DNA of 63,973 nt, counting the filler, from Reclinomonas americana ATCC 50394 (Eukaryota): NCBI GenBank assembly GCA_048213135.1. It is 18 parts of 18 records of this genome, joined end to end, with 100 filler letters (N's around TTAATTAATTAA, not from the genome) between each part and the next. Parts side by side here need not be neighbours in the genome. Positions count along the whole stretch, not along the records: positions 1 to 9,807 come from AFZH01018877.1; positions 9,908 to 11,663 come from AFZH01018878.1; positions 11,764 to 13,132 come from AFZH01018879.1; positions 13,233 to 21,760 come from AFZH01018880.1; positions 21,861 to 24,629 come from AFZH01018881.1; positions 24,730 to 29,410 come from AFZH01018882.1; positions 29,511 to 32,629 come from AFZH01018883.1; positions 32,730 to 35,326 come from AFZH01018884.1; 10 more parts are not named here. One strand, given 5' to 3'. The notes under the pieces are model-generated. The model did not search any database and was not told the DNA's origin. It saw only the letters and a list, made by a program, of their open reading frames with translations. Each line of letters starts with the position of its first letter. The stretch's first letter is position 1. Shown piece by piece: positions 5,201 through 58,242 of the stretch. Both the position numbers and the translations under genes were made by a program.

Positions 5201-7961
5201 AATGAGACGCGAGGCGATTGACACGGAGAGAGCGCCAGCTTCTCAATCACACCTTGAACACGTAATTCGGTGCGTTCTCCACGCCGTCGAGCAAGCGGCC
5301 AATCAGCAGCGCGTCAGTGAGATCTGCGAGTGATCGCACAATGAGCCAAGTAGAGAGGGTGGGGCTGCAATATCACATTTGCCAAACCTCTCTCAGCGCG
5401 CTCCACCAGCGTCTGGCACAGAGCAGACTGACATTCGGCAGAGTCGGCAGGCATGCGATCGAGGAGCGCCAGCATATCACCGACTTTTGTGCCGACAGCC
5501 TTGTACCGCAGCTGCCTCACAATGCTGTGCAGTATTGAGCGGCGGAAGGAGAAGAAGGAAGAAGAGAGAGGGACGAGTACCTTTCCATGTGCACGCGCAC
5601 ATATCGCGGCATATCAGCGCGCTCGTGCTGCAACCGGTCGACCTCCTCAAACGCGAACTGCTCTCGCTGCTCATCCTCCGTGTCGGCCGGCGCCAGCAGA
5701 TGGCCAAATGCAGTCAGCTCCTCCGGCGACAGCTTGCGGTGTGTGTCGGGGCGGAAGAGTGCAGACAGAATCGACACATTGTCTGCCTCTTCGTCCAGCT
5801 GAGGTCGGCTTTTGGTGTGCAGCTGACTGTCGTCATCCACCACAATCGACGAGCCGTCGAGGAAGTGACATGTGATGCCTGTGAGCACGAGATGAGAGAG
5901 GGGACAGTAAAGAGAGAACGGAGAATTCACAGAGCAGGAGGCGTCGAATGAAGACGGAAGAATACTTGGAACGCAACTGGGATACTCCGTGACATCCACG
6001 CGGGTGACGGTGGCGCACAGCATTCGCACGCTGCGTAACAACCGCCCCGACTCCACATTCCACACGCACAGCTGGCCAGTGGTGGTGGCAGCAACGACCA
6101 CGTGAGCTGTGCACCAATAACGAGTCACGAAGCATGAAGCAAATTCAAATAGGGAATGGGAGCTCACTGCTCACCATCTTCAGCAAACGCGAGAGCAGAA
6201 ACCATGCCGGCAGACAGCACCTCCGTCGTGTCAGCGTCGATACTCAGCGACACACTGTGTAGGGCAGCAAGGTCAGGCGGCAGCTCACAATCTCTTCCCG
6301 CATCACTGACTCAACGGTGGGATCTCCAACACCAGCGGCTCGAGCAATCCCGAGTCGCTCAAGTCAGGCGCCAGCCGTGCAACCACCACGCAATCGGAGC
6401 CAAATGCCACCATGTGCCCGTCAATCGCCGCCACGTGGATCGCCAGCTCCGACACAGCGTGCAAGTAGCCGACTGACAGAAGCTGCATCTCCAAGTCGCC
6501 CAAGTGGAGAATGCTGCGCGCACATTCTGTGAGTTGCGACGTACATGATTGGCATCAGAAGTGGAAGGAACGCAACTTGGCGGTGCCGTCGTCGAATCCC
6601 AACGCCAGCAGCGGCCATTGGATGTCCACGGCGGTGACTTCGGCAGCGCAGCGGACTGAGTGTTCTTGTGGACCGCCTGTGAAGAGGGAAGGGGGTGAGG
6701 GAAAGGGGAAGGAAGGAGGAGGAGGACGAAGAGGAGGAGGAGGAGGAGGAGGAGGAGGAGGAGGAGGAGAGAGGAGGAGGAGGAGGAGGGGAGGGCAAGA
6801 GAGCGCCAAGATCAAGGGACAAGGGGCAAAGTGCTGACGGAGAGGAAGAGAATGGAAAGGGGAGAAGAGGACGGAGGCGATGGCGAGGAAGAGAAGAAAC
6901 GAGAGAGAAAGCGAGAAGGAAAGCAAGAACAAGAAGAAGAAACACAAGAAGAACAAGAACAGAATGATGAGGAATAAGGAGAACAAGAACAACGGGAGAA
7001 GAAGAAGAAGCATAGAAGAGGAGGAGAAGGAGCAGGAGAGGAGGAGGAGGAGGAGGAGGAGGAGGAGGAGGAGAAGAAGAAGAAAAATAAGAGGAAGAAG
7101 AAGAAACGAGAGAGAAAGAGAGAGAAACAGGAAGAGCGAGATGACCAACACAAAACAAGAACGAGCAAGAGCGAGATGACCAACACAAAACAAGAACGAG
7201 CAAGAGCGAGAACAAGAACAAAACAAGAACAAGAACAGCGGGAAGAAGAAGAAGAGTGAAAACACAGCAGTACGTCGACACCCCCACACATCCTTCCTCC
7301 ACCGCCCAGATATCACCACACAGTCACCTCCCTCTCCCCCTTCCTCACCTCGATTACTCTTCTTGGTCTTCACCCTGCCCAACACCGGATACTTGGCCAA
7401 CACCCACTGCGTGAGACTCCCATTGTCGCGCAGCACCTGAGGCGCCCGACACACCGCCACCACCGACTGCCACGCAGCAGCAGCACCTCTGCTTGCCTCC
7501 ACCACTGCACACTCCGCTCCTTGCCTCCTCCGCAGCACCACAGTCTGCGTGGGAATGCATGCATCTGGGCGCATAAATAGCTCCAGCGTGCGAGCTGCGT
7601 TGCGTGCGGGCCCGAGCGCGACAGTGAGCGCACAGGCAGTGCTCAATGCGCATGCACAGTGGGCGGCATTGTCGGGAAGAGAGCGCGAGGAGAGGGTGAG
7701 AGAGGGGAGTGCTTCTCCACTGGACCAGTGCTCGAGCAGGCGCGTCCATGTGTGGGTGGCGCGTGAGGAGGAGGCGTTCCAGGCGCGGTTGACTAGGCGC
7801 AGAGAGAGGAGCTATATTTGAGAGTGTCAATGTGTGTCAGGGAGAGTGTGTGTGCTGTGGGCGCACTCAACATCGTTGAGGCAGTGTTCGCTGAAGAGCA
7901 GCACGTGGTCAATGAGCTCCGGAGGGAGCAGGAAGGGTGAGGGTTCCTGCTCACTGCTCAT
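2244..7961 (-). CDS. Large F-box protein with WD40-like repeats, a KH domain, and RGG-rich and acidic C-terminal regions
   Basis: ATG at 7961: MSSEQEPSPFLLPPELIDHVLLFSEHCLND|LLSLRLVNRAW (F-box consensus). WD-like segments AEVTAVDIQWPLLALGFDDGTA and ATTTGQLCVWNVESGRLLRS. KH segment GMLIGAGGKQVALLEEETGCHVHI (~4350-4470). RGG repeats at ~3430-3590, poly-E at ~2880-3010, TGA at 2244. Confidence 0.75.
6680..7350. repeat. Purine-rich low-complexity intron ((GAG)n, (GAA)n) containing a 35-bp direct repeat
   Basis: GAGCGAGATGACCAACACAAAACAAGAACGAGCAA occurs twice (7134-7168, 7169-7203) with a partial third copy. Confidence 0.8.
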
Positions 7962-8000
7962 TCGATCGAGAAAGACTACCGTACTGAGGACAAGTCCTGA

Positions 8001-8046
8001 AGACCTTTGCGTGAAGTTCCTGCAGACCTTTGCGTGAAGTTCCTGC
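8001..8046. repeat. Perfect 23-bp tandem duplication just upstream of the F-box gene start
   Basis: AGACCTTTGCGTGAAGTTCCTGC x2 (8001-8023, 8024-8046), ~40 nt upstream of the minus-strand ATG at 7961. Confidence 0.95.
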
Positions 8047-8247: not shown

Positions 8248-11200
8248 TCACTCACACGTTATCTCCAATCGCCTTCTGTCGTACTCAAACACAATATCGA
8301 GGCTGACGTAGGGTGCACCCGATGCGTCCACTGCATCGTGGTGCACTCGAACGAGTGCGTCGAGGTTGTCGTCGTAGGTGAAGCCGGGCTCGGCGAGGAA
8401 TTGTAATTCGTGCAGCACCGGGTCGCGTGTGCGTGGTGCCAGAAGCGAGAGTCGAGGGTTGGTTGCTCGTGAGTTGATCTGCGCGAGGAGGTAGAGGGAG
8501 AGAGAAGGAGAGGGAGAAAAGAGAGAAATGGGAGACAGAGATGAGTGTCCAGCAGGGAGATGGTACCGCGCCTGCCTTCTCAAACCTCGACATAGTCGTG
8601 CACGCGGGCCACGAGTGATTGCAAGCGAGAAGGCAAAAGAGAGTGCACATTGTCTTGTCGACGCCGCACCATCTCCCCGAATGGCATCCGCGAACCGGTG
8701 ACAGTCGATCCCCGGCCTGTGCACCAAAAGCATGTCAACAACGGGCGGAACATGTCGTGGGGGCCGCCGCCCGAAACCAACCATTGCTCTCTTCCGTCAC
8801 GCCGTGAGCATTGTGCATTTGCATGCGCAGAGTGAACTGCGTGGCCGAAGCACGAGGAGTCGCTGTTGTTGCTGCGGCGGGTGGCTTCGTGAACAGCAGC
8901 TTCACCACGGGATCCTGTCGTGCAAGGGCAGCAGCGGCGGCGGCGGCGGCGGTGGCAGCTGCCGAGGACGACGTCGTGCGCTGATTACGCTCCTGTGGCG
9001 GAGCATACATCATAACCGTCTCCAACTTGTCGCCAACCGGAGGCGGCTGCTTGTCGTGCTTGGGGCGAGCGGCAGCTTGCCCATTCGCCGCCGCGCCATC
9101 GCTGCCACCCCAGCCGCCATTTTCCTCTCCTTCATCGTCATCGTCGTCATCGTCGTCTCTATCAACATCCATGACGACGTCTCCATTGGCGGCGCCGTTG
9201 GCGTGTTGTGCGCGAAGAGCAGAATTCATCTTCCTCCGCAACCACAGACGACCGCGATCGGCGACGCGAATCGCAATCACTGCGCACCGCGGTGAGGGAC
9301 CAAAAAAAGATGAAAGACTGCGCATCGACAACATTCACGCAACGTGACAGCCGGAGGCAGGCGATTGCCCACGCAGGCTCATCTGAATCACTGCCGGCCG
9401 GTCCGTCCACAAATGCGACATATTCAAAGCATTGCAGCGACATGTCTGCCAGTCGTGGGTGCGAGGCGCCGACGGTGTAATTGAGCTTGGTCTGGAGTGA
9501 CAGCTGCTCAAAAAGGAGAGGTCAGCGAAAGCACACAAAAGCATGGCAATCTTCTTTGGATGACCGACCTGCTTGCGTGGCCGTACAGGGACCGCCAGTG
9601 GCAAGATGAGCGACCGATCATGTTGTTCCGTGCGATCCGCCATCTCGGCATCGTCGTCCGTGTCGACGGGAGCGTGAGTGACACCGACGTGATCTGCTGG
9701 GGACGGGAGGATAAGGACGAGGTACACAGAAGGCGGGGAGAGGGAGAGGAGAAAATGAGCACATAGGGTGCAATATGGCGAGAAAGAGAGAGAGAGAGAG
9801 AGAGAGANNNNNNNNNNNNNNNNNNNNNNNNNNNNNNNNNNNNNNNNNNNNTTAATTAATTAANNNNNNNNNNNNNNNNNNNNNNNNNNNNNNNNNNNNN
9901 NNNNNNNGGGGAAGATGGAAGGGGAAGACCAAGGGGGAAGACGAAGGGGAAGGAAAAGGAGGAAGGAGAAGGGGAGGGAGAAGGGGAGGGGAGAAGAAGG
10001 ATGGAAGAAGGAAGCGAAGAAGGAAGCAAAGGGGGGAAGCAAAGGGGGGCGAAGGGGGAAGCAAAGGGGGAAGCAAAGGGGGGAAGCAAAGGGGGAAGAG
10101 TAAAGGGGGAAGAGCAAAGGGGGAAGAGCGAGCGAAGGGGGAAGAGCGAAGGGGGAAGGCGAAGAGGGAACCGATGGGGGATGGCGAAGCGTGAGAAAGG
10201 AGGAGAAAGGGGGAAGGGCAACGCGATATGATAAGGAAAGCGATAACCATGCAAACAATCATGGGAAAGGAATCACGGGCGATGAGACAAACCTTCATTG
10301 GCCGGCCGTTTCTGCGGAGACGGTGAAGGAAGGGTGAGCGATCAGATGGAGAGGTAAAAGAAGAATGAGGGGGAGAGAGAGAGACAAAACTCGAGATAGA
10401 GATGGTATTGATTGCCCACCACCGACACACCTTTTCCTGCCGCTCACTCTCCGAGGCAACTGGCTTCACGGGGGCCACATTGGTGTTGGGCGGGATCAAC
10501 CGTGTTTCCAGATCGAACAGCACTACAACACACGCAGTCGAGTCACAACTCACAATCCGCTTTGTGTGGCACGCTCTCAAAACACCCACACCTTCCAGAT
10601 CACGCAGTCCGCTGAATACGAGATTGACCAGCTTGGGCGGCAGGAAGCGCACCAAGGAGAACACATCAAAGAAGAATGCCTACGCCAAGACACCGTCAGC
10701 CGAGGTGGAGCAAGACAGAGACCGCACAGATACGCACATGTTTGGTGCGATAGAAATCCTCCTCGAGGCGCGCAGACAGGCGACTGATTGGAATCACATA
10801 CGCCATGAGCTTGGGGTCCTACATCGCCAGTGAGTAGGGATGCAAAACGAACTCACCCCACGAACACAGCAACGCAACTTTGCATTCTCGCTGTTCGGCC
10901 AACTTCTCCGTCAAATCCAGCACGCCGGCCAGCTGCGGGTTGCGGTACCACGACCAAATCACTCGCAGTGCTTGATTCCTCTCGGCTGCGACAAGCGCGT
11001 GTGAGCGCACCGCATGCTCGCGGAACCACAGCGAAGCGCAACACACCTGGCGAACAGAATGGCGTCGGCTTTGGGTACTCGAAGCCACCCTTGCCTTTCT
11101 TGGCCAGGATCAGCTCCCACCAGTGCACAGTGTCGGGTTCCGGGGACGTGGTGCTGCATGACGACGGTGAGCAACGCGTGCACAGCAACATGTACGGATG

Positions 11201-11573
11201 ACAGGACGCAACAACTTGACTGTCGTGCTGTGGCAGTGCTTCGCCTCCGGTGTGGTGTTGGCCAAGATGGTGCACGCGGCGGCGACAATATTACCTTCTT
11301 CCACGAATTCGACACCCGCTCGTGCATTGACGCCGAATCGGTGTTGTTGGAAGACTGCATGGAGGGAGAGAAAGGGGAAGGGAGAGGGAGAATGAGAGGG
11401 AGGGAGGGAAAGGGAGTGGTGGGTGAGGAATGCAGAGGGAGAGGGAGCGCGAGGAAGAGCGAGAGAGAAAGGGGGAGGGGGATCGGGAGAGGGATCGGGA
11501 GAAGGAAAGGGGGAGAGAAGAGACAAACGGACATACTGGCACGCTAGAGAAGACAAGATGCAAGCAGACGCAG

Positions 11574-11627: not shown

Positions 11628-11763
11628 AGAAGAGAGAGAGAGACGACGAGTAGTAGAGACGACNNNNNNNNNNNNNNNNNNNNNNNNNNNNNNNNNNNNN
11701 NNNNNNNTTAATTAATTAANNNNNNNNNNNNNNNNNNNNNNNNNNNNNNNNNNNNNNNNNNNN

Positions 11764-13033: not shown

Positions 13034-13075
<42 letters not shown>

Positions 13076-13244
13076 GGAGAGAGGAGGAGGGGAGGAGAGG
13101 ACGACGCCCTCGCGACATAGGCAATCAGAGAANNNNNNNNNNNNNNNNNNNNNNNNNNNNNNNNNNNNNNNNNNNNTTAATTAATTAANNNNNNNNNNNN
13201 NNNNNNNNNNNNNNNNNNNNNNNNNNNNNNNNACTCTCACACTC

Positions 13245-13324
<80 letters not shown>

Positions 13325-14162: not shown

Positions 14163-20496
<6,334 letters not shown>

Positions 20497-22648: not shown

Positions 22649-23402
22649 CGCTCACGACACTGCTTGCCTATTCTACCAGGCAGCTCCGCCGCCAACTTGC
22701 TCCACCGCCGAGCGCCGTGCTCCGTCACCAGCATACGCAGTTTCTCGTCCTCTTCTGGGGTCCACAGCCCTGCCCGACGAAAAACAAGGATTTGAGTGAC
22801 GTTTGTGGGACGTGGAATCGCCGACACGCGCACTCACCGCGGACATAATCGCGCGATTCCTGCTTTCCCGGCTGCTTGGTGTCTCGATATCCAGGCGACA
22901 ACTCCGCGGATCGGCCAGGTGAACTGAAGCCCGACATGTCAGACAGCGGCGAGGTGCTGCGAGGCGACGGGCCACCCGAGGCCGCACCCGGTGGCTGTGC
23001 ACGGAGAAGGAAGTGAACAGTGAGCACGAACGTACGTGGAGAATCAAAAAGAAGGCTTTCGTACGCAACAGCCAAAAACTGCGGCATCATCAGCGGTGGA
23101 ACCCACATGCCGTTACCACCGCCACCTCCGCCACCGCCACCACCGGCGTAGCCCACGCCGAGATGCGGCGCACTTCCTGGCGCAGAGTACATTGGCGTGG
23201 CATTCGGGCTCGGCAGCGAGACGCTCAATAGATCGCCACCCATGGCACTGTACATTGGATACGCCTGTGAACGGATGGCGGCATACTGTTGTTGCTGTTG
23301 TTGCTGCTGCTGCTGTAGGTAGTAGGCGGATTGAGGATTGCTGTAGGGTGATGAGACGGGAGAGACTGCGGCGGCTGATGGCGAGAGGCGCGAAGCAAGC
23401 AT
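22649..23402 (-). CDS. c-Myb/R2R3-type Myb transcription factor (partial)
   Basis: GLWTPEEDEKLRMLVTEHGARRWSKLAAELPGRIGKQCRER is a canonical Myb repeat, preceded by a Q/S/P-rich region. Downstream exons were not found before the gap. Confidence 0.9.
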
Positions 23403-24362
23403 TGGGTCCTGCGGGAGGGAGTGAGCGATGAGAACTAGTTCTGTATCTAACGCGCCACACCGAACTGTCTGAAACACACGGTGAATCGGCAACAAGTCAA
23501 ACCCGCCAATGAGCACACACACGCCATTCTCGCACCCCACACACAACATAAACATACACACACAGACACGCGAAAGAACACACGATATGAGCACTGTCAC
23601 TTGGTGATGGATGAAGCGGACATACTCCACAGAGAGATGCTCACGTGCGACGGATTAAGCACAAACTCGGCGACGCCAATTGTTGGAATGAAGCACAGAA
23701 AAGAAAGAAACACACTCAATGTGAAGCAGTGCACGTGCGTGTGTGGCGAGAGAGAGAGAGAGCACGGGCGGAGATGACTGATGATTACAAACCCCCAAAC
23801 TGTGTCCGATCGCTCATTTGCCACTCAGTCGCATGCTCTCACACACAACACAACAAAAAGCACACTGGCATTCACATGCACACAAGCTCACACAAAGCGC
23901 AAACAACAGCGCGCGCTCAAGCAACCCGCAAAATACACACTACTGTGTCTCTTTCACACACGCGCGCGCACAGAGACGCACACACACGCACAGAAAAGGA
24001 GATACACGCGCACACAGAGAGCACATGAGCGCATGAGCGTGTGAGAGCGAAAGGCGGAGATGCTGATATGCGAACCGACAGAGGCACACATAATGTGTAA
24101 ACAGAACCCACATGCAAAGTGCGAGTGGGAGAGCGCATGAGAGCGCGCTTGTACGTGCGAGAGTGTGAGAGAAGTGTGCGCGAGTGTGTGCGAGTCAAAA
24201 GACGCAAAGAGGTGATTGATTGAGAATAGAAAGTAGCCGAGTCGCGCGCGCGCTCTCTCTCGCTTCCTGTCTCTCTCTCACACACGCGCGCTCTCCACAC
24301 TCACACTCACTCATTCACACACACACGCGCGCGCAGTGTGCACACTTCAACTCGACTCACCA

Positions 24363-38939: not shown

Positions 38940-40734
38940 TTCTGTGTGATGGCGTACACGAGTGCGTTCCAGAATCTGTTGTTGTGAAGTGATGTTGGTG
39001 CGAGAGCAAAGAGAGAGAGAGAAGGAGAAGAAGTGAGTGACGAACCCAGAACTCGGCTCCAGCACCGCTTGGAAATAGAAGAGCCACCTGTGTAAATAAG
39101 CGATGAGCCATGCGCTGATAAAAATGGCGGCGACGCCGGGAGGACGCAACTCAATGCCATGATGGTCGTCATTGATGGCCTCGTAGATGCGATTCTGCAC
39201 ACAAGTCGTCAGCACCAACAACGCTGCGGCCAGGAAGAACACACATCGAAGCAACGCATTGCGCAACGGTGAGACCCGGTAGCCAGATAAACACAAAGAC
39301 CACCGTCTGTCACGATGAAGAGCCACGTGAGTTGAGCTTCACGAGGCGAGAAGGATACAGTGTGGCCATGCGCAACGTAAAAGATCATTCGCTTCGCCAC
39401 CTTGCCCTGGTACTGCTTGTGGGAGGTGTACGTATTGATTGACTTGGCCAACTGCCGTCGGTAACTTGACAGACCACTGTTGCAATCACCATGACATGAG
39501 CACGATTCCCGCGCAGCGCGCAGCGAAACACGACAGAAGGGGGCCAGCGCACCGAGCAATGAGAACCAAGAAGATAAGATTGATGATAAACGTCTGCGCC
39601 ACAACAGAAGCATGCAATGAGGAAGGCAGGCAGGCGCGCACACACGCGCGCGCGCGGAGACATCACCACGCAACTCCGAACAGGAAGCCATATCCGAACG
39701 CCCATCGAAACACATTCCGCGGCCCAATGATCCAGCACCCGTTGCCCACCGGCCCAAAGTCATTGTCAGCCTGCACACCGTGTATCAGAAAGAACGGCGA
39801 ACGGCGGAGAGCGAGAGGCGCAGAGAGAGAGAGAGAGAGAGAAGACGCAAATACGCACCAACAGTGTGATGGTCATGATCACAGGAATTCTGTGGCATGA
39901 GTGTGCATGTGTGAGAGAGAGGGAGAGGGAGAGTGAGAAGCAGACTGCATTGCCGAGGATGAGCGAGCGGGGTGATGCGACGAACCCCCAGGCGATGATG
40001 TGATAGGCGACCTCCATTTTGAAGAACTTGCCCGTCTTCTTGTAGACCACCGTGGCCCTGCACACACTGTGGAGTGAGCGACAGACAGAGACACACACCC
40101 AGTGTGTCTTCTCTCTTTGCACACACCAGATGGTGACGTTGAGGGCGACCTGCCAGATGAGCGAGCTGAATCCGCCGAGCTGGATGAGACTCGCCTGGAA
40201 CTTGCACAGAGGCGTGCTCACTTGCAGCGTCTCCGGTAATGACAGACCAAGCATCCAACCAACCGCTGGAGAAGCAGAGGCGCGTGAAACGATCAGTGAG
40301 AGAGAGAGAGTGCAAGAGACAGACAACGAACCATCGACCAAGTCAGCGATCGCCAGCATCAGCACAAGCCGACTGGCGTGATATCTGCGCGCAGAAGAAA
40401 GCATCAGCAATCAATAGTGTCACTCTTTGAGAGAGAGAGAGAGGGAGGTGCACCGTAGTCGTCGCATGAGCACATAGGAAACAATAATGAGCACTGATCC
40501 ACCGATGCCTGTTCGCGAAGAGTGAGTGTGTGTGCGCGTAGGTTTGTGTGGCAGCAGTGTGCATTGCGCGCACCAAAACCCGCACTGGCACCGGCCACAG
40601 TCACCACTGTGGAGTGCAGGCTCGACATTGAGAGAGAATAGCACACAGTGTGTCCTGTCAGGCAAGAAGGACGCGAACACTTGACAGACGAGCATGAGCG
40701 CTGCTGCTTCCTCTGCGCCCGTGCTGCAAACCAT
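38940..40734 (-). CDS. cAMP-receptor-like (CAR/GCR1-type) 7TM GPCR; 3' truncated
   Basis: GIGGSVLIIVSYVLMRRLR, SRLVLMLAIADL, LCKFQASLIQLGGFSSLIW, EVAYHIIAWGIP, FGPVGNGCWI, KVAKRMIFY and NRFWNALVY. Confidence 0.85.
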
Positions 40735-40871
40735 CGACGAGAGCGAGGTGACGCAGGTGGAGATCCGCCCACAGGTGGTCCGCCTGCTCACAGCCGCCAA
40801 GGACAAGTTTCGGAAGAGAGAGGGCGACATTGTCAGTCCACACGCGCTCACTCTTGCACGCGCTCAGTGAC

Positions 40872-42510
40872 ATGGCGACTCTGGTGGAGCTGCTGGGCGA
40901 CGACGTGAGTGCCGAGTCGCGGAGTGCGCTGATTGATGAGGGAGATGGGCGAGGACGCACTGCGTTGCACTTTGCGGCGCACATGGATCACGTGGAGGTG
41001 TTGCGCTTCTTGTTGCAGCGTGGCGCGGATATCGATAAGCAGGATCATGTTGAGTCGAAGTGGCGACAGAGCAGAGAGAGAGACACTCACATTGAGAGAG
41101 AAGAGACTCATTGTGTGTGATGATGTCGATGATGCAGCTGGGGCACTCGGCGATTGTGGTTGCGGCGATCTGTGAGAGCGAGGCAGCGCTGCGGTTCTTG
41201 GTGGAGCAAGGCGCCGACCTGAACTTGGTCTCCAAGGTCGACCCGTGTGGCCTGCTGCATCACGCTGGTCTGTGCGACGGGAGTGGGGCGATGGCAAGGG
41301 CATGCAGTCACTGATATCTCTCTCTCCTTCGTTCAGCGATGCACATGGGTGTTGATGTGGTCGACTTTCTGCTGCGTTCCGGTGCGCGTATGACCGACGT
41401 GGGTCGCGTACAGCAGGATAATGGGAGCCCGCTGTTCAAGTTTGCCAGCGACGGCGATGTGGAGACGATGCGCAAGCTGCTGGAGGCCGGTGCGAATGTC
41501 AATGTCACGGACTCGAATGGTCTCAGACCATTCCATGCGGCCATTGGTGCGGTTGTTGTCTTCAGTCTCTAGTAGCGTGCCTGCTTGCTTGCTCGCCTTA
41601 CAGTCGGATGCAGTCACCGGTCAGCTGGACATGGCGCGCTTCCTGCTGGAGGCCGGTGCAAATGTGGAACACCGAGTGCGTGGCGGCGGCACCGCGATGC
41701 ATTTGGCCGCCGGCACCGGCAACGTCGAGGCGCTGCAGTGGCTGGCCACGCTCGAGGCGGCTCCGAGGCTATTTGGATTCGACAATGACCTGGAGACGCC
41801 GCTGGATGTGGCGCGGGCCACCAGTCACTCGTTGCGTCCGTACTCCCCGAGATACTCTCATGTGTTCACATATCTCAATGTCTGCGCACAGGGCGTGCGA
41901 GCGTGCTCTCCTCGAGTGCACGATTCGTGGTGAGACAGGCGCGGCGATCGAGTCTCGCTGGCGAACGGTGCGCATCTTGTCGTGCGAGCGAGATAGCAGA
42001 GAGATTGCTGAGCAGCGTGATGCAGGCAAATGACATGAAGCTGCGTGCCAACAACCTCGTCAAGGAGGGCAAGTACGAGCAGGCGCTGGCCATTTACGAG
42101 GAAGCCACGCAACTGGCGCCGGAGAACTTTGTTGCGTGCCACATGACGCAGTGTGACGATTGGGTTCTCGCTCGCTCACGTTTTTTTCTGTGTCATGCTG
42201 CGCAGTCCCTGTACGGCAACCGCTCGCTCTGCCACTTCAACATGAAGCGCTATCCGCGTGCCATTGAGGAGGCCGACGAGAGTCTGCGCATCAACCCGTG
42301 GTGGCCCAAGGTCGGCATGCATTCATTTCGCGGCTCGTCTCTCACTTCCATTAACATGTGTGTGCGCAGGGCTACATTCGCAAGGCCGCGCCGCTGATTG
42401 TACTCAAAAAGTACGACGCCGCTGCCGACGTGTATCGCATCGGGCGTCTGTTCAACCCCGACGATGACGATCTCATCGAGGCGGTGAAGCAGCTGGCCAG
42501 ATACACATGA
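40872..42510 (+). CDS. Ankyrin-repeat plus TPR protein
   Basis: GRTALHFAAHMDHVEVLRFLLQRGADID, GANVNVTDSNGLRPFHAA, and TPR ANNLVKEGKYEQALAIYEEA...SLYGNRS...NPWWPKGYIRKA. TGA at 42510. Confidence 0.9.
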
Positions 42511-43418: not shown

Positions 43419-44219
43419 TTATTGCATGTCGCCGTAGATGAAGCTGCGGAACATCTCCAGGGCAACCACAGGTTGGCTGCATGCAATCACCAACGTGAGT
43501 ACATCGCGCGACGTGAAGTGGATATCGAAAAACACAAACAAACGAAACTCCATCGGGACCATGTGGCCCGCGTTGAAGACGACCAAGAAGCGCAGGTTGT
43601 CGGCACGCTTCATGAAACCCTTGGTCTCACCGTCGACCTTCCACGGATTGCGACGAGCTCGCCTAAAGTCCTCCTGGTACTCCCACTCCATCGATCGCAG
43701 CCAGCTGTCGGTGCCGGCAAAGTTGCAGATGAAGTCGTCGGCACCGTTGTAGAACAGGACCGGCAGCTCGCGCAGGATCTGGGTGACCTCCTTCACCTGT
43801 GATGACCACCAGTCCTTGTAGAACTGACGGTGGACGCGCAGGTTGCAGGGCTTCCAGCGCGGCGCGTTGTCGTCCACGTGCAGTGCCTCGCGCACGGCCG
43901 GAATGGACAGGTAGCGTGAGACCGGCTGTGAAAAAAAACAAGGGTTTGAGAGAGAGAGCGAAACGCAAGATCACGGCCGAGCTGTCCATCGTACCGTAAA
44001 GTCGTAGCACAGTGAATTGTTGGGCGGGCACTGCTTGGTGACGTCGTAGACGTTGAGTGAGCCGTGCGAGCGCTTAATGCGGCCAATGATGCCGTTGCAG
44101 GCCTGGTTCTCCTCCTTGGGTTCGCCAGCGGCAATGGCTCGCTTGCAGCGTGGCCACTGCTTCTGGGTGAGGAACTCGTACAGGTTGTGGTCGATCAGGC
44201 CGTGGTAGTAGCTGTGCAG
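43419..44219 (-). CDS. Serine carboxypeptidase (peptidase S10), 3' part
   Basis: NVYDV, LPVLFYNGADDFICNFAGT and FLVVFNAGHMVPMDQP, with the catalytic Asp and His present. TAA at 43419. Confidence 0.95.
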
Positions 44220-45142: not shown

Positions 45143-47465
45143 ATCAATGTGTGCTGATAGTAGTATTGTTGCATGGCGGCTTGCTGCTGTGGATCCATCG
45201 GCGACTGCCCGCTCACCACGGGCGGCGATGAGAACTGTGGAACAGCGCTGGTGGGTTGCCGTGCAGCAGCGGCGTAGCCAGCTGGCATGGCGTGAACCGG
45301 TTGCATCTGTGGTGTGGTGGTCTGCGGCTGTGCCACAGGCTGCTGGAGGTACGGCGACGAGGCAACCGGCACCGGTTGTGTCGGGGTGGCGGTGCTGGCG
45401 GGAGGCACAGCGGGTGACTGTTGTGCACCCTGCAGCGAGCCGACGTACAACCTGGCAACGCGGTCAACCACAAAGGGAGACTGCAGTAAGAGTATGCATC
45501 AATCGTCGTCACACACCATTGCTCTTCGCGAAAACGCTGCCCCGGCGGCAACAACGGTGCCGTCGACATGAGACACACGTAGACGGTTCCATTGGCTGCG
45601 GCCAGCGGAATGTTGCCCAACAGGTACTGCAGCACAAGCGCGTCGTTGAGCACAGCCACTATTCCCACACACGCAATCGAGAAGCACCTTTTTAGGCGAC
45701 CCACTGAGCTGGCTCAGCAAACTCAAGAACTCGTTGGTGATCTGACTCGGGCGGAATACACCCACCACAATCGGCGGCAGCTGCTGCACTGGCACCGTCA
45801 ACGGTGCAAGCGTAAACGCCACGCTGGTGGGCAGCTGTTGAATCTTTTCGTGTGACCACGAACTGGGAGAAGCACACAAGTCGTCAGCAAGACAGACAGA
45901 GAGTACAAAAGCCAGGCGTCTGCGTGTCGCCATAACTAGAATCGCTTGCCCTCGGGCGACCCAATCTCAGGCAGAGTGCCGGCGTAGATTTGACCCGGGA
46001 TGGACAGCGAATCCACTCGCACAGTTCCATCCCAGATGGGACCCGTAGCCGACGCCTGTAAGCAGACACACACGCACACACACACACCAAGTAAATGAAC
46101 CTGTCACATGACTACGCCACAAAAACAACTTCTCCGCTCGCAACATTCATGTGTAGCGGTGGCGGCTGTGGTGGTGTTGGCGGTTGTGGTGCCTGCGGCT
46201 GTGGTAGATGCTGCATGGGTGGCTGCGGCAGCACACCGTACTGCGGAACAGCTGGTGCCGCCAGTTGCTGCGGTGGCTGCGGCTGTGGCGGCTGTGGCGG
46301 CTGCTGCGGAATCGCTTGCATGGGAGACACGTACGAGGAGCTGTCGACGGCCATGGGCGTGGGAGCCGCATGACCGGGAAGAGGCGGTGTCGGCATGGTG
46401 GCCACCACCGGTGCCGCCATCAAGTGTGGCACGTTGCGCAGCCACGCAGTACCCCGTGCAAGATCCACATGTTCCACTCCGTGATCGTGCCGTTGCGACG
46501 CCGACTGGATGGATGCACACGCAATGAAAAATCGTCAGGAGGAACCCGAGACTCGCGCTGTGGACCACGTACCATAAAGAGTCGCTCATACTCTGGCACA
46601 TGGTCACGCGTACATATCACCGACAGAAACACCTCTCGATGCGCCTGCACTCACCAAAGCGCACGCGTGAGCAATCGGGTGTGGCGACACGGGTGCGACG
46701 ACGACACACATACATCGGACATGAGCTGCACAAGATCGTCGACAGATCTGCCAAAGAACTCGACGGATTCCATGTTGGGCAGCGCACTGGCGGCCGACGA
46801 GGTCACCAGCACACAATGCCGCAATATCGACATGTCATGGTGCAACAGGAGCCACTGCATGCCGGAGCATGATGAGACGCAGTGGGATGGCAAGAAAGAC
46901 AAAAGGTGCGAGACACAAATTGACAGCACCTCCATGGCCACACCAAGTCCGTCGGCCACCGCCGCCTCACTGCATCGACTCCGTCGTGAGAAGAAATCAA
47001 CAATTCAGTCTCTGACAGGAGACAAGTCGAACCTCCACAGACTGGCCTCGTGTGGACTGAAGCAGTCCGACTGCAGTGCACGCAACACTCCCTCCACGTG
47101 CGGCCTCACGGGGAACTGTCGCACAGTGCCACCACTTGCAAACGTGCCAAACGGTGGACTGCTCGAGAATGCAATCACGCAGAACTCGACCGCATGCTGC
47201 GTGCCAGACAAGAAGCTCAGCAAGTGACAGCTCTCAAGCAAGAGAACACTCTGTATGTGTCACAGACCGTGGACTTCTCTTGCGTTGGCGCACTGGCGAA
47301 TCGCCTGTGTGCAAGTGCGTGTGAGAGAGAGAGCGCACGAGACACACACGCGCATGCAACACGAGACTTGAGCAGTGTGGGGAGAAAGTCCTTGTCTGTG
47401 CACAGCTCGACGGCCTCGGCAGAGGCCTCGACGACGAGAGCCACGCGCACTCGAGCGCGTGACAT
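44890..47465 (-). CDS. MED25: Mediator subunit MED25 (VWA domain, ACID-like domain, polyQ tail)
   Basis: RVALVVEASA...FLPTLL, EFCVIAF, AAVADGLGVAME and RHCVLVTSSAASALPNMESVEFFGRSVDDLVQLM align with the MED25 VWA domain. IWDGTV and VGVFRPS...FLSLLSQL resemble ACID. Q-rich C-terminus. Confidence 0.75.
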
Positions 47466-49443: not shown

Positions 49444-49475
<32 letters not shown>

Positions 49476-50750
49476 CTCACCGTTGCGCAGACTGGACACG
49501 TCGACAGCATACCGCAGAATCGCTCCAATGCCGCCAAAGCCTCGCGTGAATTGCGTGCCTTGTGGTGACGCTGCGACACCCGAGGTGCGTCAGATGGGCA
49601 AACGAGGTTGGACAAGAACGAGAAAACTCACCATCGGTGATCGTCACAACCTCGCATCCGTACGACTTTGCCGCGTGGTCCAGCAGCCACTCCACCAGCG
49701 GCTGCATGTCCTCCACGACCTCATCGGCCGCCAACGTCAGCTGCGCGTTGGTCGATCGGCGCACAACATACCGCACCACTGACGAGCGACGGCGGTTCAA
49801 TCAAATATGTTGATGGGAGAAGCCACGACATCTGCTAACACAAACACATACTGTACCTGGACCACTGTGTGTCTGCAGCTGAAGGCGCCACAGAGGCGAC
49901 GACTCCCACACCAGCAGCTTCTCCACTGCGCCCATGTCGATGAGGGCCGCCTGTCGCGATTTCCACGACATTGAGGGAGGAGTGCATGATAGCAGCAACG
50001 GACAAAAGAGACAAACCATGGTGTCGTACACGCCAAAGCACATGCAGCCAGTGTCGCGTTGAATGTGCGAGAAGAACTCGTCGAGCTCGGCGCGCACTCG
50101 AATGTACTCCACGTGACCCAGGTGCGGCGCAGCAAGTGCCACCGCCTGGTGCAGACCACTCTCGCCACCGTACGCAGTGTCCACCTTGCACAAGATCGTC
50201 CGCGCCACTCGCGGATCCAAGCTGCCACCTCCATCAGTGAGTAAACACTCGCAGGGCCGCAAAAATGTTGATCACAGTGCACCCACCTGTCGGACTGCAC
50301 AAACTCGTCCTTGAGGTCGGCCGAGCCACCCACCACCAGGCCCGACACGGTCACTCGATTGTTGGCAAGGAACAACTCGGTGGCAATCTCCGCCGCTCGC
50401 TTCACCTGCATGCACGCGAGGACAGGTAAGTTACACACAGCAGCGTTGACACTGGTGTGCATGGCAGGGGGTAGGGGAACGTACATACGCGGCTCGGGCA
50501 ATCATTCGCAGTCGAGCAAAGCGCACCGAGCTCTGACCACCCTGCGCTCACACACACACACGATCGACTCAGCCATCACTCCTCCTCTGCGACGCACACC
50601 CGCAACAGGGAAACACACAACTCGTCGATGCTTGCATGGCAGGTCGACTCCCATGTGACGCAGCACGGTCTTGCGAGCGCCACACACCGTGGCAAACAGC
50701 ACGCCGTGCCCGTCCATGATCACAAATCCATACGTCTCCTTGTCGACCAA
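49263..50750 (-). CDS. eRF1: Divergent eukaryotic release factor 1 (M and C domains; N domain lost in the gap)
   Basis: YGFVIMDG, VDLPCKHRR|GGQSSVRFARLR, GLVVGGSADLK, VDTAYGGESG, DTGCMCFGV, MGAVEKLLVWE, GTQFTRGFGGIGAILRY, and an acidic tail ending DLDDFM*. Confidence 0.92.
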
Positions 50751-52368: not shown

Positions 52369-52429
<61 letters not shown>

Positions 52430-52738: not shown

Positions 52739-55700
52739 GATACTCGTGGTGCGACGCCCGCAACGCCTGCTGCAGGTATGGCTGCACCGATGACAGCGGC
52801 ATGTCGTCCGGCAGCAAGGCCAGTGCGCGCACCAGGTCCACGTACTTCGGGTAGCGCAACATGAGCGACAGCGCGGCTTCTCGCAAACTCTGCTTGGCGC
52901 CCGTCCTGCATGGCACGGTACGTGCGTGAGCGTGCAGACCATACGCAAAAAAGAAAAGCATGCGCGCACCATCGGTTGACCAGCGAGTCACGCATCTCGC
53001 CCGGTGGTGGATTCATGAGCATCTCAATCAGGTCGAAAAAGAAGGCGCGGTGATGTGGCTGTGGCTGAGGCAGCACAAAGCGGCCGCCTGTTGACGAGCT
53101 GGCGCCGGCAGCTGAGGCGGCAGTCGCAGCCGAGGTGGTTGTCGTTGTTGTCGTCGTGGACGAGGATGAGGACGAAGATGCACCACCAGCTGCGTCGCCG
53201 GCATCACCAGTGAACGAGGGTATGGTGGCACTCGCCACAATGCAGTCGGCAATGCTCGCATCCGGGAAGAGGCAGTAGTACTCGGCGGCTGGCAGGTTAC
53301 CCATGCTGTACACAATGGCACGCAGGGCCTCGCGATGTTGGCCGGCCTACGCGTGGTGAGTTGGCGGTAGATGCACACTTCTCTCTTGCGCGGAAACACA
53401 CCTTTTTGAACAAAATCAGTCGCTCGTAGTACAGCGAGCTCTGCGCCAGACGCGTCTGCAGCGTTTGCAAGTGGTACGCCGTGGAGGTCTCCAGCAGCGC
53501 AATCAGCTTGCTGCGGAATTCACCCAGCATGCCGGCCTCATTGCCGGGCAGCACCAGCAAATCGCCGTGTGGCTCACTGGACTCCATTCCCTTCCAGTAC
53601 GTGATCTGCTCAATGTACTTGATGGCCAACTGGGTGTGGTACTTGCCGTTCTGTACGATTGCACATATTGGCGTGTCAGTCAATCGCCATCATAAATGAC
53701 TGGAGCACCCAAACAAACCTCCGAGCGCAGGTGCAACACCAGGTGTTCGAGATACTCGCGCTGTGCGTCCTCCGAATACACACCGAGGTATTCGAGCACT
53801 CGCTCCGTGTCCAATGAAGCAGCCATGGGGCTCGTAAAGATCTGCGCACCGCTTCGTGAGTTTCCTCGCCACCACCACCACCACCACCACCAACGACAAA
53901 GTGCACACCTGGAGACCGGCAGTCGGATCCTCGGCCAGCACCCACGACGACGATCGGAAAATCAGCTGTGGATCTCCGCACTCTTCGAGAACACGCACGG
54001 TCCACTTGATGCACTCCTGCGTGGTGAGGATGGGTGCACCCGACTGTTTCCGTGACCCAGAGTTGAACGAATCCGACACATCCACTCGTGCCGCCAGCGC
54101 CGACGATGATGGTGCCAGCGCAAGCGTCTCCCACGTCTCCAGCGCCTCGGTGTACATGCCCCGCGATCTATACAGGAGGGCCCGCGCGTGCTCACTCTGC
54201 AGAATAACAGTGAGGAAGGAACGCAAGCACCAACAATCAGTAGCAAGTACATCGAACCTGTGGCACTCGCTGAAGCAGCGGGAGACCATACTGCAGCGAC
54301 ACGTGGTGCGAGGTCGACGAGAGCAGCTCATGCAGCGCGGCAAGATCACCCTCCGAGTAGATCACCACCAGCGCGTAGTCAACTGACTTGGCGATTTGCT
54401 GTCGTGTCTCTTGGTCCCACGCCTCGCTGCCGGCAAAGAGATAGCCGGCGGCGCGAACTTGTTGCAGGTACACGCGCACCGCCTGTCGCGCTTCACTCAC
54501 CAGCGCCCGCTGCGTCTCCGGAGCCACCAGCTGCGCTCGGCCGCCCACACGAGCCAGCAGAGCCGCGCGTACGGCTTCGCTCATGGAGGACACAGAGCGG
54601 GCGGCCACCGATGCCGACGGTCGCGAAAAGTCCACGTCGGGACACTTCAAATCCTCAAATAACCGCACCACCTGCACGCATACAAACACAGTGAGCATCC
54701 GTGCGTAAATCTTCGGTCCCCACAGGCATCGGAGAGATCCACAGTACCTCACGCGGGTCCATGTTGGCTTTCTGGAAATGTGAGAAGGCCTGCTCGAACT
54801 CCAAGTGTCGCAGCAGCGTCCATCCCGCATACATGTGCAAGTCACGCTCCCGATCACGCTACAATGCCTCCTCGTGTCAGTATCTGCGGAGATACAAGCA
54901 GTGGTGTTTGTGTATCTGTGCGCGCACCTTTTCATTGTCGGCTCCCACAAAGAGCTTCGACAACAGATCGAAAGCCTCTTGCACCAGCAACTTGTTGATG
55001 AGGTTCTCCACTTGTCGCAAAAGCGGAATGGTGACGAGCACATGAATTTGGTTCTGCATGGCCACAAACACTTTTGTGCCGTTCTCCGCCAATCCCAGCA
55101 CTGTGGATACACGACAGTGAGACAGCCGCATTGGCGACAACTGCCAGGGCTCCCAACCAAACCATTGCCGAGTGGCACAGTGTCCACGAGTGACTGATCC
55201 AGAATGTTGTGGACCTCCATCATGTTGTTCTGCGCGCTGACGACATACGGGTACGAGTGGGCGATGCACGCCGGCGTCGAAGACCAGGTGACTGTCGCAC
55301 GCGAGTTGACCGTCGACACGGTGGCATCGGCGCCACTGGCCGCCGAAGGCGTACTGCTTCCGGCTGCACCACTTGCTCCTGATCCACTGGCAGCGCCCGC
55401 CTTGCCGGCTTCGGCAGCCACAGCTCCCTCGACCGCATCCGACTCCATCACGCCAATGTCGAAATACAAGCCGGTATCTGAACACCGGCGTCAGTCATCT
55501 CTCTCCGACTCACTCACAAATATACACACGCTCGGGCATCGCACACAACTGTTGACACGAACGACAGCCTCTCGGGTGTCGCGACAGACGGCCACCAGCG
55601 GTCCATCCTTCTTCTTGTCGGTGAAGCGGGCCAACAGCGACGAGTGACCCGTGTCGACATTGTAGAGCGAGTAGTCCTTGCGGTTGCCGAGCACCAGAAT

Positions 55701-56687
55701 CGGATGCAACACCGCCATCGACATGACATGATCCGGCAGATCCACCTCCTTCAGCTTGCGATACGGCGAGGCGCCATTGAGGCACGCCACCAGCACCACC
55801 TTCTTCTTCAGACCAATGTACAGCAGTGTGTTGCCGCCCGACACACTCTCCTCCTCCACAGCCGCCGCCACCAGCAAGCCCATCGACTTGCCCGCAGCAG
55901 CATTGGGCAACAGCGCGCTCTTTGGCGACGCCGAGTCCACGGCCACACACAGAGCTCCACGCGCCTCGCGCACCGAGCTGAGAAACTGCAGTCCGCGATC
56001 CGGCAACGCACTATGTAGCGTCACAGTCTCATCCGACAGCACCGCCAGCGTGGAGGTGCCGGGAACCACGCGCAATGCATCAATCGGCCGCCCTCCCGAG
56101 CGCCTCACCACGCGACTCTTGCGCGTCTCACTGCTGTCGCCCGCCGCACCCGCCGCGCCACCCGTCACCGACGACGACGACGATGACAGCGATGAGGAAG
56201 CGAGCTCGGAGACAGCCAGTCCGCCCTCCAGCAACTCGCCAATCTTTGTGTGTGACAGAGATGTGAGAGGCAGAGGGAGAGAAGAGTGCATGCGACGGGC
56301 AAACTCACATGACCCTGCAGATNNNNNNNNNNNNNNNNNNNNNNNNNNNNNNNNNNNNNNNNNNNNTTAATTAATTAANNNNNNNNNNNNNNNNNNNNNN
56401 NNNNNNNNNNNNNNNNNNNNNNCCGGCACGAACTCCTCATAGACGCGCCCTGAGGAATCCGATGCACGTTGCAGTGCGAATGTCTGAATGACACCCGTGG
56501 CCGTGCCCAGAAACACATAGTCGCCTGCGGAAAGAGGAAGAAGAAGAAGAGTGTGTGAGTGCGCGTGACATGGCTGCGCGTTCTCTCCCTCTGGTGGCTT
56601 TTTCCTCTCGTACAACTCACCGGCACTGTCGATGCACGTGACCTTGCCGGAGACGGCATGGTCGCTGCACGCAACACTCGCCTCCAT
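52739..56687 (-). CDS. Vps39/Vam6 or TGFBRAP1/Vps3-like tethering subunit (CNH domain, Vps39 domains, clathrin-repeat-like region); spans a gap, 3' truncated
   Basis: VTCIDSA|GDYVFLGTATG, LKEVDLPD...ILVLGNRKDYSLYNV, YPYVV..MEVH, FSHFQKANMDPRE, YRSRGMYTEALETW, YHTQLAIKY, AAEYYC and ALALLPDDMPLSSVQPYL. Confidence 0.85.
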
Positions 56688-56776
56688 TGTCAACACGCCC
56701 AACACACACGGTTCGCGGTCTGATCCAACCAACGACCTGTGTGAGGAGAAGTCGCCTGTACACACACACACGCGCC

Positions 56777-58242
56777 ATGTATCGCAACTCATACGACACG
56801 GATATCACCACGTGGAGCCCTGGTGAGTGAGCAACTCAGAAAGAGAGAGAGAGGTGAAAGGGGAAGGGAAGAGAAGGGAGAAAGAGAGAGTGCGCGGGAA
56901 GCAGACTCTTCTTGCTGCATGCACTCAGGCATCAGTCTGCTTCTGCTGGCATTTGTGCTGTGCACCGACTCGCACATGAGTGCAGTCGTGTGCGTGAGTG
57001 GGTGCCTTTGGGGGCGCGCGTGTGTTGAACGAAATTGACACGCTCGCACTCACTCGCACACCCGCGCTCTCCCGCTCGTCGTGCGTGTGTCTGTGCTGCC
57101 ACTGTGCAGTACTCTCCTCTCTCCGTCTTTCTTTGTGCATTGCAACATGAAACGCGAGTGAGTGAGACAAGTGCGCGAGGGCGCGAATTTGACACACTCT
57201 TGTCTGCACACAGTGGGCCGCCTCCATCAAGTGGAGTACGCCATGGAGGCTGTGAAGCAGGGCAGTGCCACTGTCGGTGTCAAGTCCAAGACACACGTCA
57301 TTCTCGTGTCACTCAAGCGGTGCGATTCGCATGCTCGAGACTCGCAAATGTGATGATTGCTCACACTCACATTGTGCGTGTGTGCGTGTGTGTGTATCAG
57401 TGCGCCGCACGCTGAGCTGTCGTCGTATCAGAAGAAGGTGTTCAAGATCGATGAGCACATTGCGGTGTCGGTGGCTGGTCTGACGGCCGACGGGCGGCTG
57501 CTGTGCAAGTTTATGCGCAACGAGTGCATGACACACCGATTCGTGTACGAGAGCGCGGTGCAGGTGTCGCGCCTCGTCACGCGTGTCGCCGACAAGAGTC
57601 AGGTGGCCACGCAAAAGTCCGGCAAGAGGCCGTTTGGTGTCGGTCTCCTGGTGGCCGGCTTTGACGTTTCGTCAACACTCTCCCTTCCTTTCTTCTCTTG
57701 CATCTCTCTGATGTTGCTGTTGTACCGCACACAGAAAACCGGCCCGCACCTCTTCCAGACGTGCCCCTCTGGCAACTACTACGACTACAAGGCGGTGGCC
57801 ATTGGCGCTCGCTCGCAGTCGGCCAAGACCTACCTCGAGGACAACTACACCAAGTTCGAGGACGGTGTGTTGGCTGCTTGCCATTCTTCTTTCACTCAAT
57901 TCCATCAACTCACTGCTGCTGCGGGTGCTAGCCTCGAGGGACGAGCTCATTCGACATGCGCTCAAGGCGTTGCAGCAGACGCTGGGCGAGAACGTGGAGC
58001 TGAATGCCAAGAACTGCACCGTGTGTGTGGTTGGCAAGGACAGCGCCGTGCGCATCTTTGAGGACCAAGAAGTGGAGGAGTTTGTTGCGTTGTCCACTCG
58101 TGGTGGTGTGAGGACCGCGCTTGATTCAATGCATTCTCACTTGCCCCTCGCGGCACAGTTGGCATTCATCGAGGCCGTGGAGGGCGCGGCAGAGGGCGAG
58201 GCACCAGCGGCCGCCCGCATGGCCATTGACGACCCAGAATAA
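56777..58242 (+). CDS. PSMA1: 20S proteasome subunit alpha type-1 (alpha6/Pre5)
   Basis: [37 protein letters not shown]...ELSSYQKK...[27 protein letters not shown]...[17 protein letters not shown] at 58242. Confidence 0.98.

Follow-up and report, generated by a model that had tools for sequence, protein, structure and literature searches.

Sequence evidence for a one-base-shifted class of 5' splice sites in Reclinomonas americana

Human 5' splice sites at which the U1 small nuclear RNA (snRNA) pairs in a register shifted one base downstream were reportedly described by Roca and Krainer in 2009, and bulge registers of U1 are likewise said to have been described by Roca in 2012. The present analysis concerns a window of 63,973 bases, the whole stretch of Reclinomonas americana ATCC 50394 DNA that was analysed, in which about one quarter of the predicted introns appear to start with GTT, most often as GTTGCGT, and to carry the donor motif one base further from the cut than the canonical introns beside them. 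For human genes, the available text of PMC4856993 and PMC11162779 shows the shifted register for a few sites, and in that of PMC11162779 all non-canonical U1 registers together account for 1.5% of sites. Bulge +2/+3 and asymmetric-loop registers of U1 are covered by the accessible part of Tan 2016 (PMC4856993). The accessible text of PMC11162779 also gives experimental support, at the STAT3 tandem donor D2, for a helix between U6 and the 5' splice site that lies one base off. In Mamiellophyceae, the donor consensus of Micromonas is AG/GTGCGT (slashes mark the cut; PMC3879977, available text) and donors of Ostreococcus read GTGCGTG, for which Irimia and Roy raised the possibility that the snRNAs might have changed to match (PMC2483917, available text).

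The introns described here resemble the human shifted-register sites in that the intron starts with GU, the usual last exon G has become the first intron base and the complementarity to U1 lies one base further in. The test oligonucleotide for human shifted sites, ACA/GUCAAGUAUA (accessible parts of PMC4856993 and PMC11162779), has the same layout as A/GUUGCGU here. The human sites are a handful, whereas the class makes up about 25% of the predicted introns here, and the core is UGCGU instead of the AAGUAU of the human sites; UGCGU pairs poorly with textbook U1. Bulge +2/+3 and asymmetric-loop registers likewise look as if one base had been inserted into the consensus between +2 and +5, but they keep the exon pairing (G at -1, A at -2), while the sites in the window never have G at -1. 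The canonical class of the window, aAG/GTGcGT together with a CTGAC/CTCAC branch motif, is like that of Micromonas and Ostreococcus, for which the accessible portions of PMC3879977 and PMC2483917 describe no one-base-shifted class; the organism here is intron-rich. As at STAT3 D2, the conserved CGU would need a one-base offset of U6, although D2, as far as the available account goes, is a single regulated human site and not a genome-wide class. Like U12-type introns, the shifted class has sharply defined donors of its own that occur next to the main ones; unlike U12-type introns, it shares branch site and acceptor with the canonical introns of the same DNA. U12-type introns have the donor consensus RTATCCTT and a TCCTTAAC-like branch site, and as both are absent from the shifted class this assignment was rejected. 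Shifted-register donors are thus of a kind already known, while full-text literature searches, whose coverage left out most subscription papers, found no lineage-wide shifted donor class and no major class with a strict rule at -1 in print.

The class was noticed in a sequence-only reading of the window, which listed 20 introns starting with such 7-mers; all 20 are present at the coordinate and on the strand given. Gene structures were predicted independently of these sites with a gene finder whose coding score comes from a 3-periodic order-3 Markov model, self-trained after seeding with 17 open reading frames (ORFs), and that accepts GT..AG introns of 35-400 nucleotides (nt), with GT as the sole donor information in the donor-blind rounds. 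The first version, which had no acceptor term and was very noisy, returned 107 introns with GTTGCGT as the commonest donor 7-mer (n=7). A second version, which also scores YAG and a CTSAY branch motif, predicted 123 introns donor-blind, again with GTTGCGT as the top donor 7-mer (10/123). Its share among the 8083 GT sites leads to an expectation of 0.44 in 123 (p=7e-12), and independent position frequencies predict 0.31. A mixture model of two components plus background divided the 123 blind donors into aAG/GTGcGt (39%), /GTTGCGT (22%) and background (38%). Counted as a bare motif on both strands of the window, GTTGCGT has 29 copies, 0 of them preceded by G; relative to the donor-blind gene models 22 copies are sense, 2 antisense and 5 intergenic (p=3.6e-5 for 22:2). 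Since the class emerges without donor information, it is not a selection effect of the reader.

When the learned donor mixture was fed back, this donor-aware round gave 158 introns in 32 gene models, and the shifted class accounted for 40 of the introns (about 25%) in 20 of the models. Curation by hand removed five weak cases (4732, 6943, 21469, 34866 and 51360) from the 40 GTT donors of the gene finder and added two that it had missed (7871 and 43548), leaving 37 (Table 1). The claim of at least 20 shifted introns is therefore extended: all 20 were kept, each with an open frame that runs into the 7-mer and a YAG 60-254 nt downstream, and 17 more were found. All 37 introns start with GT and end with YAG, and in 30 a CTSAY motif precedes the acceptor by 8-50 nt. 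The frame requires 29 of them, and 31 are flanked on each side by 30 or more open codons; the median length is 75 nt. The donor 7-mers are GTTGCGT (21), GTTGTGT (4), GTTGAGT (3), GTTGCGC (3) and others. Judged by their ends, their branch motif and the frame restored by their removal, the members of the shifted class appear to be ordinary U2-type GT-AG introns. An origin from introners or repeated introns was rejected after the 37 introns, with flanks of 40 nt, had been compared all against all by blastn, which returned the overlapping flanks of neighbours, CT-rich low-complexity sequence and one 18-nt identity; as no copies were found, the curated introns are independent of one another. At the level of these predictions, the shifted donors are confirmed as a real class.

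The exon bases follow the displacement. As the sequence-only reading had stated, canonical donors mostly follow G (66 of 71 GTR.G donors), and G at -1 occurs in 0 of 32 GTTG.G donors (Fisher 1e-21); in the donor-blind set the corresponding counts are 28/43 and 0/13 (p=4e-5). The tally of -1 bases over the 20 listed sites (A 10, T 6, C 4, G 0) is exact and becomes A 16, T 12, C 9, G 0 over the 37 curated introns, with A13 C8 G0 T11 among the 32 GTTG.G donors. No difference in base composition was found between shifted -1 and canonical -2 (p=0.33) or between shifted -2 and canonical -3 (p=0.97), while shifted -1 and canonical -1 are unlike (p=2.6e-18). On the intron side, positions +4 to +7 repeat canonical +3 to +6 (G, C, G, T) more strictly, with G at +4 in 27/29, C at +5 in 22/29, G at +6 and T at +7, as would follow if other positions had to make up for a mismatch at the old +1. 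Among donors with T at +3, those with G at -1 have G at +5 in 12 of 15 (GTTCG, GTTTG and GTTGG, in the canonical register), while those without it have a non-G base at +5 in 39 of 40 and G at +6 instead. Simple tolerance of T at +3 leaves the displaced G and T unexplained. Other canonical hexamers have shifted twins as well (GTTCGT/GTTTCGT and GTATGG/GTTATGG). These counts make it well supported that both classes represent one motif, A-G-(G/T)-T-G-C-G-T, which would be cut at its first GT. A separate observation concerns intron phase, which is distributed over 0/1/2 as 14/7/14 in the shifted class and 38/46/18 for donors with G at -1 (p=0.007). Moving the canonical phases by one base gives a distribution that the shifted class fits (p=0.87); the G content of the three codon positions (0.37/0.19/0.38) accounts for the canonical phase bias and for part of the shifted one.

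Protein homology or repeat register, as read from the alignments, fixes the cut before the first G at five junctions (30199, 42131, 41049, 50621 and 57666), where removal of the intron restores a frame collinear with homologues or repeat profiles. In the HECT gene (30199), exons joined in this way show no gap across the junction in 6/6 homologues, with the conserved V-T-x-E-N. A cut as GTT/GC, which would make a GC donor, was rejected there because the extra residue that it brings in forces a gap and the score falls in 6/6 homologues; the cuts G/TT (a non-GT intron) and GTTGC/GT both break the frame. At 42131, residues 85-113 of the upstream exon correspond to positions 6-34 of the 34 positions of the TPR_2 profile, with one residue after them, and residues 2-31 of the next exon to positions 3-32, so that the 34-residue repeats abut exactly. 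At 41049, upstream residues 68-98 match ankyrin profile positions 2-32 with one residue left, the exon end being position 33 of 33, and residues 2-32 of the next exon match positions 2-32; the 33-residue repeats thus also abut exactly. In eRF1 (KHRR/GGQS, 50621), the final R of the first exon aligns with residue 182 of 1dt9_A and the first G of GGQ with residue 183. Since this alignment is gapless, the alternative GTT/GT with its one extra residue is not favoured.

The proteasome junction GFD/KTG (57666) is collinear with solved structures, in which D103 corresponds to 135 and T128 to 137. The comparison with an 80%-identical protein (P0001) leaves exactly 23 residues unmatched, the size of the 69-nt intron, before identity resumes with K-T-G. 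Other introns of this gene start as G/GTGAGT, G/GTGCGA, G/GTGTGT and t/GTTGCGT, the last in a variable tail with no anchor. The HECT, eRF1 and proteasome motifs named in the earlier reading therefore hold as anchors; two further ones hold in part. For the peptidase motif AGHMVPM/DQP (43548), the Pfam match stops at GHMVPM directly before the donor and the spliced D is the D of two solved relatives, but the intron reads through and the alignments with solved structures end at the donor with the short last exon outside, which leaves a weak anchor. The intron at ND/LLSLRLV (7871) is needed for the frame, while its F-box reading was made by eye only. The frame was also tested with a coding model for which 14 intron-free ORFs were the only training data; a cut before the first G gave a consistent offset at 27/40 sites of the shifted class (chance 1/3, p=1e-5), a rate similar to that of canonical donors (48/65).

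The explanation that we consider probable is a shifted motif with a one-base offset, read most likely by the 5' end of U1. The introns would be ordinary short GT-AG introns with a CTSAY branch site and a YAG acceptor, and their 5' splice site would be the normal extended A-G-G-U-G-C-G-U in which U replaces the second G. The sole remaining GU would then start one base upstream, at the usual last exon base, and the cut would be made there, as A/GUUGCGU and not AG/GUGCGU. The reader of the motif would sit one base further downstream relative to the cut. We infer that the U1 5' end of this lineage would be complementary to GUGCGU, with G-C at positions 5-6, and that the later contact of U6 with the conserved C-G-U would also be displaced by one base. 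Positions 5-6 of U1 are usually two pseudouridines; in textbook U1 they would lie opposite the almost invariant G and C of the shifted class, an odd arrangement for the best-conserved positions. Duplexes were calculated with the textbook U1 5' end AUACUUACCUG (printed in PMC4856993), which pairs with canonical sites at -7.0 kcal/mol, 87/87 predominantly and 81/87 purely in the canonical register. A hypothetical U1 with G-C at positions 5-6 places 29/35 shifted sites in the shifted register (mean -6.5 kcal/mol) and 84/87 canonical sites in the canonical one (-10.1 kcal/mol). A wider claim can be put forward tentatively, namely that throughout the genome the choice of the cut site is uncoupled from the U1 helix. 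About one quarter of introns would have the duplex one base off the scissile bond, with either a co-evolved U1 (G-C at 5-6) or a second U1 (A at 8) and with the contact of the U6 ACAGAGA box displaced too, and the major spliceosome would accommodate two donor classes by two registers or two snRNAs.

The main rival is that a second, dedicated U1 variant (e.g. with A for C at position 8 and a GUGCGU-matched end) reads GUUGCGU, so that two U1 species would be present. A hypothetical 5' end of this type, AUACGCAACUG, in which A at position 8 is added, pairs with 35/35 shifted sites in one register (mean -10.4 kcal/mol) and with canonical sites poorly and inconsistently (47/87 in the canonical register, -5.3 kcal/mol). 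The intronic part of the shifted class is very uniform, as for a tight dedicated reader, and variant U1 genes are known in animals according to the available text of PMC3561869 and PMC10870369. This arrangement is nevertheless unlikely: a single U1 explains without a second gene why shifted -1 and -2 follow canonical -2 and -3, the shifted twins that apparently accompany all types of canonical hexamer are easier to reconcile with one reader, and the Rfam scan of the window gave no snRNA match. Alternatively, U1 pairing might not define these sites at all, and U-G-C-G-U might be read later by the U6 ACAGAGA box, U5, Prp8 or a protein, with the nearest upstream GU being cut. Textbook U1 does bind the shifted sites very weakly, C-G-U is kept in both classes, at a distance from the cut that is greater by one base in the shifted one, and a U6 register displaced by one base has the experimental support from STAT3 D2 cited above (PMC11162779, accessible text). 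A purely intronic reader predicts no exon preferences, however, while the A and the missing G at -1 resemble the preferences at canonical -2, which pairs with U1, and canonical sites pair well with U1; a late reader is thus quite improbable. The intronic motif alone (GU-U-GCGU) would fit equally well with an ordinary U1 in its normal register and an extra U bulged at +2/+3, and bulge registers of this kind have been validated in human sites (PMC4856993, available part). In that case -1 would stay opposite C9 of U1 and G would be expected there as in the canonical 66/71, but -1 G is found in 0/32, in 0/13 blind, in 0/29 of all GTTGCGT copies and in 0/37 curated introns. As -1 G is absent where a bulge would keep -1 G and -2 A, the bulged register was rejected and its chances are next to nil.

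Several points weigh against the preferred explanation of a one-base-offset motif read by U1. The mean pairing energy of textbook U1 with the shifted sites is only -1.2 kcal/mol, and the shifted register is taken at 9/35, so that an explanation by U1 requires an altered or a second U1. If U1 pairing is the mechanism, a change akin to the modified U1 or variant snRNA suggested in the sequence-only reading would thus be indispensable. The depletion of G at -1 predicted by the sequence-only reading is strong against canonical donors and modest against the local background (p about 0.01): 0/29 compares with 13-14% before GTTG (p=0.0125-0.015), and the excess of A at -1 is modest in the same way (11/29 against 17.8%, p=0.008). 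The strong contrast at -1 is with canonical donors, not with the local background. The sample is 64 kb only, all but five or six junctions rest on the custom gene finder, and the donor-aware round is partly circular for exon-position statistics, although the blind set and the motif-only count agree with it. The gene finder is known to have erred in calling an intron at 29760, where the HECT-domain match runs on uninterrupted, and in choosing the wrong acceptor for 50621, where the true intron has 80 nt. Many junctions might accordingly be mis-set, or be no introns, being gene-finder artefacts, retained in-frame segments or sites at which a nearby GT or GC is used instead. Eight of the 37 read through in frame, so that the frame does not demand them, and the four GTTGTGT sites have a second in-frame GT 3 nt downstream, between which homology decides at 50621 only. 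Against this stand the five junctions fixed by homology or repeat register, the 29/37 that the frame requires, the open codons on each side (31/37), the YAG (37/37) and CTSAY (30/37) signals, and the 22:2 sense bias and 7e-12 enrichment, which came without donor information. It is therefore very unlikely that errors of this type explain the class.

Table 1. Predicted introns of the shifted class (curated set). The small letter before the slash is the exon base at -1; "claimed" marks introns listed in the sequence-only reading; blind and aware denote the donor-blind and donor-aware rounds.
Positions	Strand	Donor	Length (nt)	Status and gene	Support
1124..1245	+	t/GTTGCGT...CAG	122	new	blind; flanks 214/270 codons; needed for frame
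2238..2319	-	t/GTTGCGT...CAG	82	new	blind; flanks 681/52 codons; branch motif
5879..5977	-	a/GTTGCGT	99	claimed	blind; multiple of 3, reads through; not demanded by frame alone
6255..6315	-	c/GTTGAGT	61	new	aware; needed for frame; branch motif
6514..6576	-	a/GTTGCGT	63	claimed	blind; flanks 411/69 codons; in-frame stop inside
7812..7871	-	t/GTTGAGT...TAG	60	claimed; F-box-like junction (by eye only)	outside gene models; needed for frame; flanks 61/418 codons
9280..9343	-	c/GTTGCGT	64	claimed	aware; blind run: same acceptor, donor 48 nt upstream, same frame
10819..10878	-	a/GTTGCGT...TAG	60	claimed	aware
11154..11212	-	t/GTTGCGT	59	new	aware; flanks 149/99 codons
20324..20393	+	a/GTTGCGT	70	claimed	aware
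22995..23069	-	t/GTTGCGT	75	new	aware; read-through possible; support from motif, branch site and CAG only
23341..23547	-	t/GTTGTGT	207	new; possible, weaker	aware; second in-frame GT 3 nt downstream
26199..26326	+	t/GTTGCGT	128	claimed	blind; flanks 189/155 codons
26643..26896	+	a/GTTGCGT	254	claimed	blind; flanks 172/269 codons
27667..27742	+	a/GTTGCGT	76	claimed	blind; flanks 376/41 codons
27853..27929	+	t/GTTGCGT	77	claimed	blind
30129..30199	-	c/GTTGCGT	71	claimed; HECT ligase gene	HECT homologues; best-anchored GTTGCGT case
35737..35816	-	c/GTTGCGT...TAG	80	claimed	aware; blind run: in-frame GT 9 nt downstream
36954..37029	-	a/GTTGTGT	76	new	aware
37693..37772	-	c/GTTGCGT	80	new	blind
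38976..39150	-	a/GTTGCGT	175	new; possible, weak flanks	aware
39195..39267	-	c/GTTGCGC	73	new	aware
39307..39376	-	c/GTTGCGC	70	new	aware
39594..39674	-	a/GTTGCGT	81	claimed	aware
40807..40867	+	a/GTTTCGG	61	new	blind
41049..41137	+	t/GTTGAGT	89	claimed; between two ankyrin repeats	Ank repeat register
41831..42015	+	c/GTTGCGT	185	new	aware; flanks 145/126 codons
42131..42205	+	t/GTTGCGT	75	claimed; between two TPR repeats	TPR repeat register
43477..43548	-	a/GTTTCGT	72	claimed; serine carboxypeptidase (S10) gene	Pfam match end, D residue; reads through, weak
45863..45936	-	a/GTTATGG	74	new	blind and aware; shifted form of canonical G/GTATGG (60026, 60722, 38085)
46056..46144	-	t/GTTGCGA	89	new	blind
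50542..50621	-	a/GTTGTGT	80	claimed; eRF1 just before GGQ	1dt9_A alignment
55478..55549	-	a/GTTGTGT	72	claimed; CNH-domain gene	aware; flanks 257/412 codons; rival in-frame GT 3 nt downstream
57666..57734	+	c/GTTTCGT	69	claimed; proteasome alpha-1/alpha-6 type gene	solved structures and 80%-identical protein
58084..58158	+	t/GTTGCGT	75	claimed; proteasome gene of 57666	aware; variable C-terminal tail; reads through; motif, TCTCAC branch site and CAG only
59818..59878	+	a/GTTGCGG	61	new	aware; flanks 104/73 codons
62587..62653	+	a/GTTGCGC	67	new; possible, short downstream frame	aware

A few features of individual introns were noted in passing. Between their donor and acceptor, introns 26199-26326 and 26643-26896 on the + strand contain long tracts rich in C or CT (CCCT repeats), and the former has no CTSAY motif near its acceptor. 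The introns at 39195-39267 and 45863-45936, both on the - strand and unrelated, have an identical 18-nt stretch round the branch site (GCTGACGACTTGTGTG region).

The window has a base composition of 56% G+C and contains 34 runs of 44 N, paired as 17 linkers (44 N, the 12-mer TTAATTAATTAA, 44 N) at 9808-9907, 11664-11763 and 15 further places. Because it consists of 18 joined contigs, of which at least two ends carry (AG)n microsatellites, nothing can be read from the way in which neighbouring contigs are ordered and oriented. A Pfam scan of 280 stop-to-stop ORFs, each of at least 110 residues, gave a family match for only about 25, with ankyrin, TPR, teneurin-type EGF, HECT, peptidase S10, B9-C2, eRF1, CNH, proteasome and TFIIB among them and a few weak others; B9 proteins are ciliary, so that the source is presumably a flagellate. 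The genome sample is intron-rich, with proteins mostly lacking database relatives. This holds for the gene with four shifted donors, for whose 256-residue exon (26898-27665 +) a search of 1.84 billion representative proteins found no relative at E<=0.001 and which in the ESM Atlas met weak unnamed clusters only, with recognition below the Atlas reliability mark. The best relative of the proteasome protein is an environmental protein of 80% identity, its named matches being green algae and heteroloboseans at 65-74%, and the HECT protein matches a brown alga and a choanoflagellate at 38-41% identity. A word-based search with the eRF1 exons returned no longer homologues at E<=0.001, and these exons are too divergent for such a search; the eRF1 frame at 49263-49560 (-) closes with a long acidic D/E run after GFGGIGAILRY.

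Two repeat-containing regions were also observed. Within the teneurin-type EGF ORF (28265-29410 +), GTTCCGT lies on the - strand at 29055, 29148, 29241 and 29334, and this 93-nt spacing indicates tandem 31-residue repeats that are near-identical in DNA. The run of ankyrin-repeat exons at 14157-18015 and 20822-21751 (both +) has recurring intron ends, e.g. CCAG/GTGCAGTCT at 15578 and 17185, which suggests tandem duplication; 0/13 predicted introns in this run belong to the shifted class. A scan of the window with Rfam gave 0 matches at gathering score and 9 weak ones at E<=1, with no snRNA among them. MicroRNA-like matches at 13028-13289 were rejected, as they span an N linker, and so were matches to plant microRNA families at 22505-22622 (E 0.06-0.5, far below gathering score), which cover both strands of a palindrome; the palindrome is probably a hairpin-forming repeat.

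For the annotation of such genomes, the consequence would be that gene finders trained on a single donor matrix miss about one quarter of the introns or mis-splice them by one base, which leads to frameshifted proteins. For the biology of splicing, the interest lies in how the exact phosphate is chosen. U1 leaves before catalysis, and the debate on this choice has drawn on human sites that are few and either engineered or rare. A genome in which about one quarter of introns carry a motif displaced by one base would supply hundreds to thousands of natural test cases for cut-site choice. The sequence rule would be a simple one, with G at -1 going with the canonical register and a non-G base at -1 followed by GTT going with the shifted register, and this rule at -1 gives a sharp prediction on the 5' end of U1 in this lineage.

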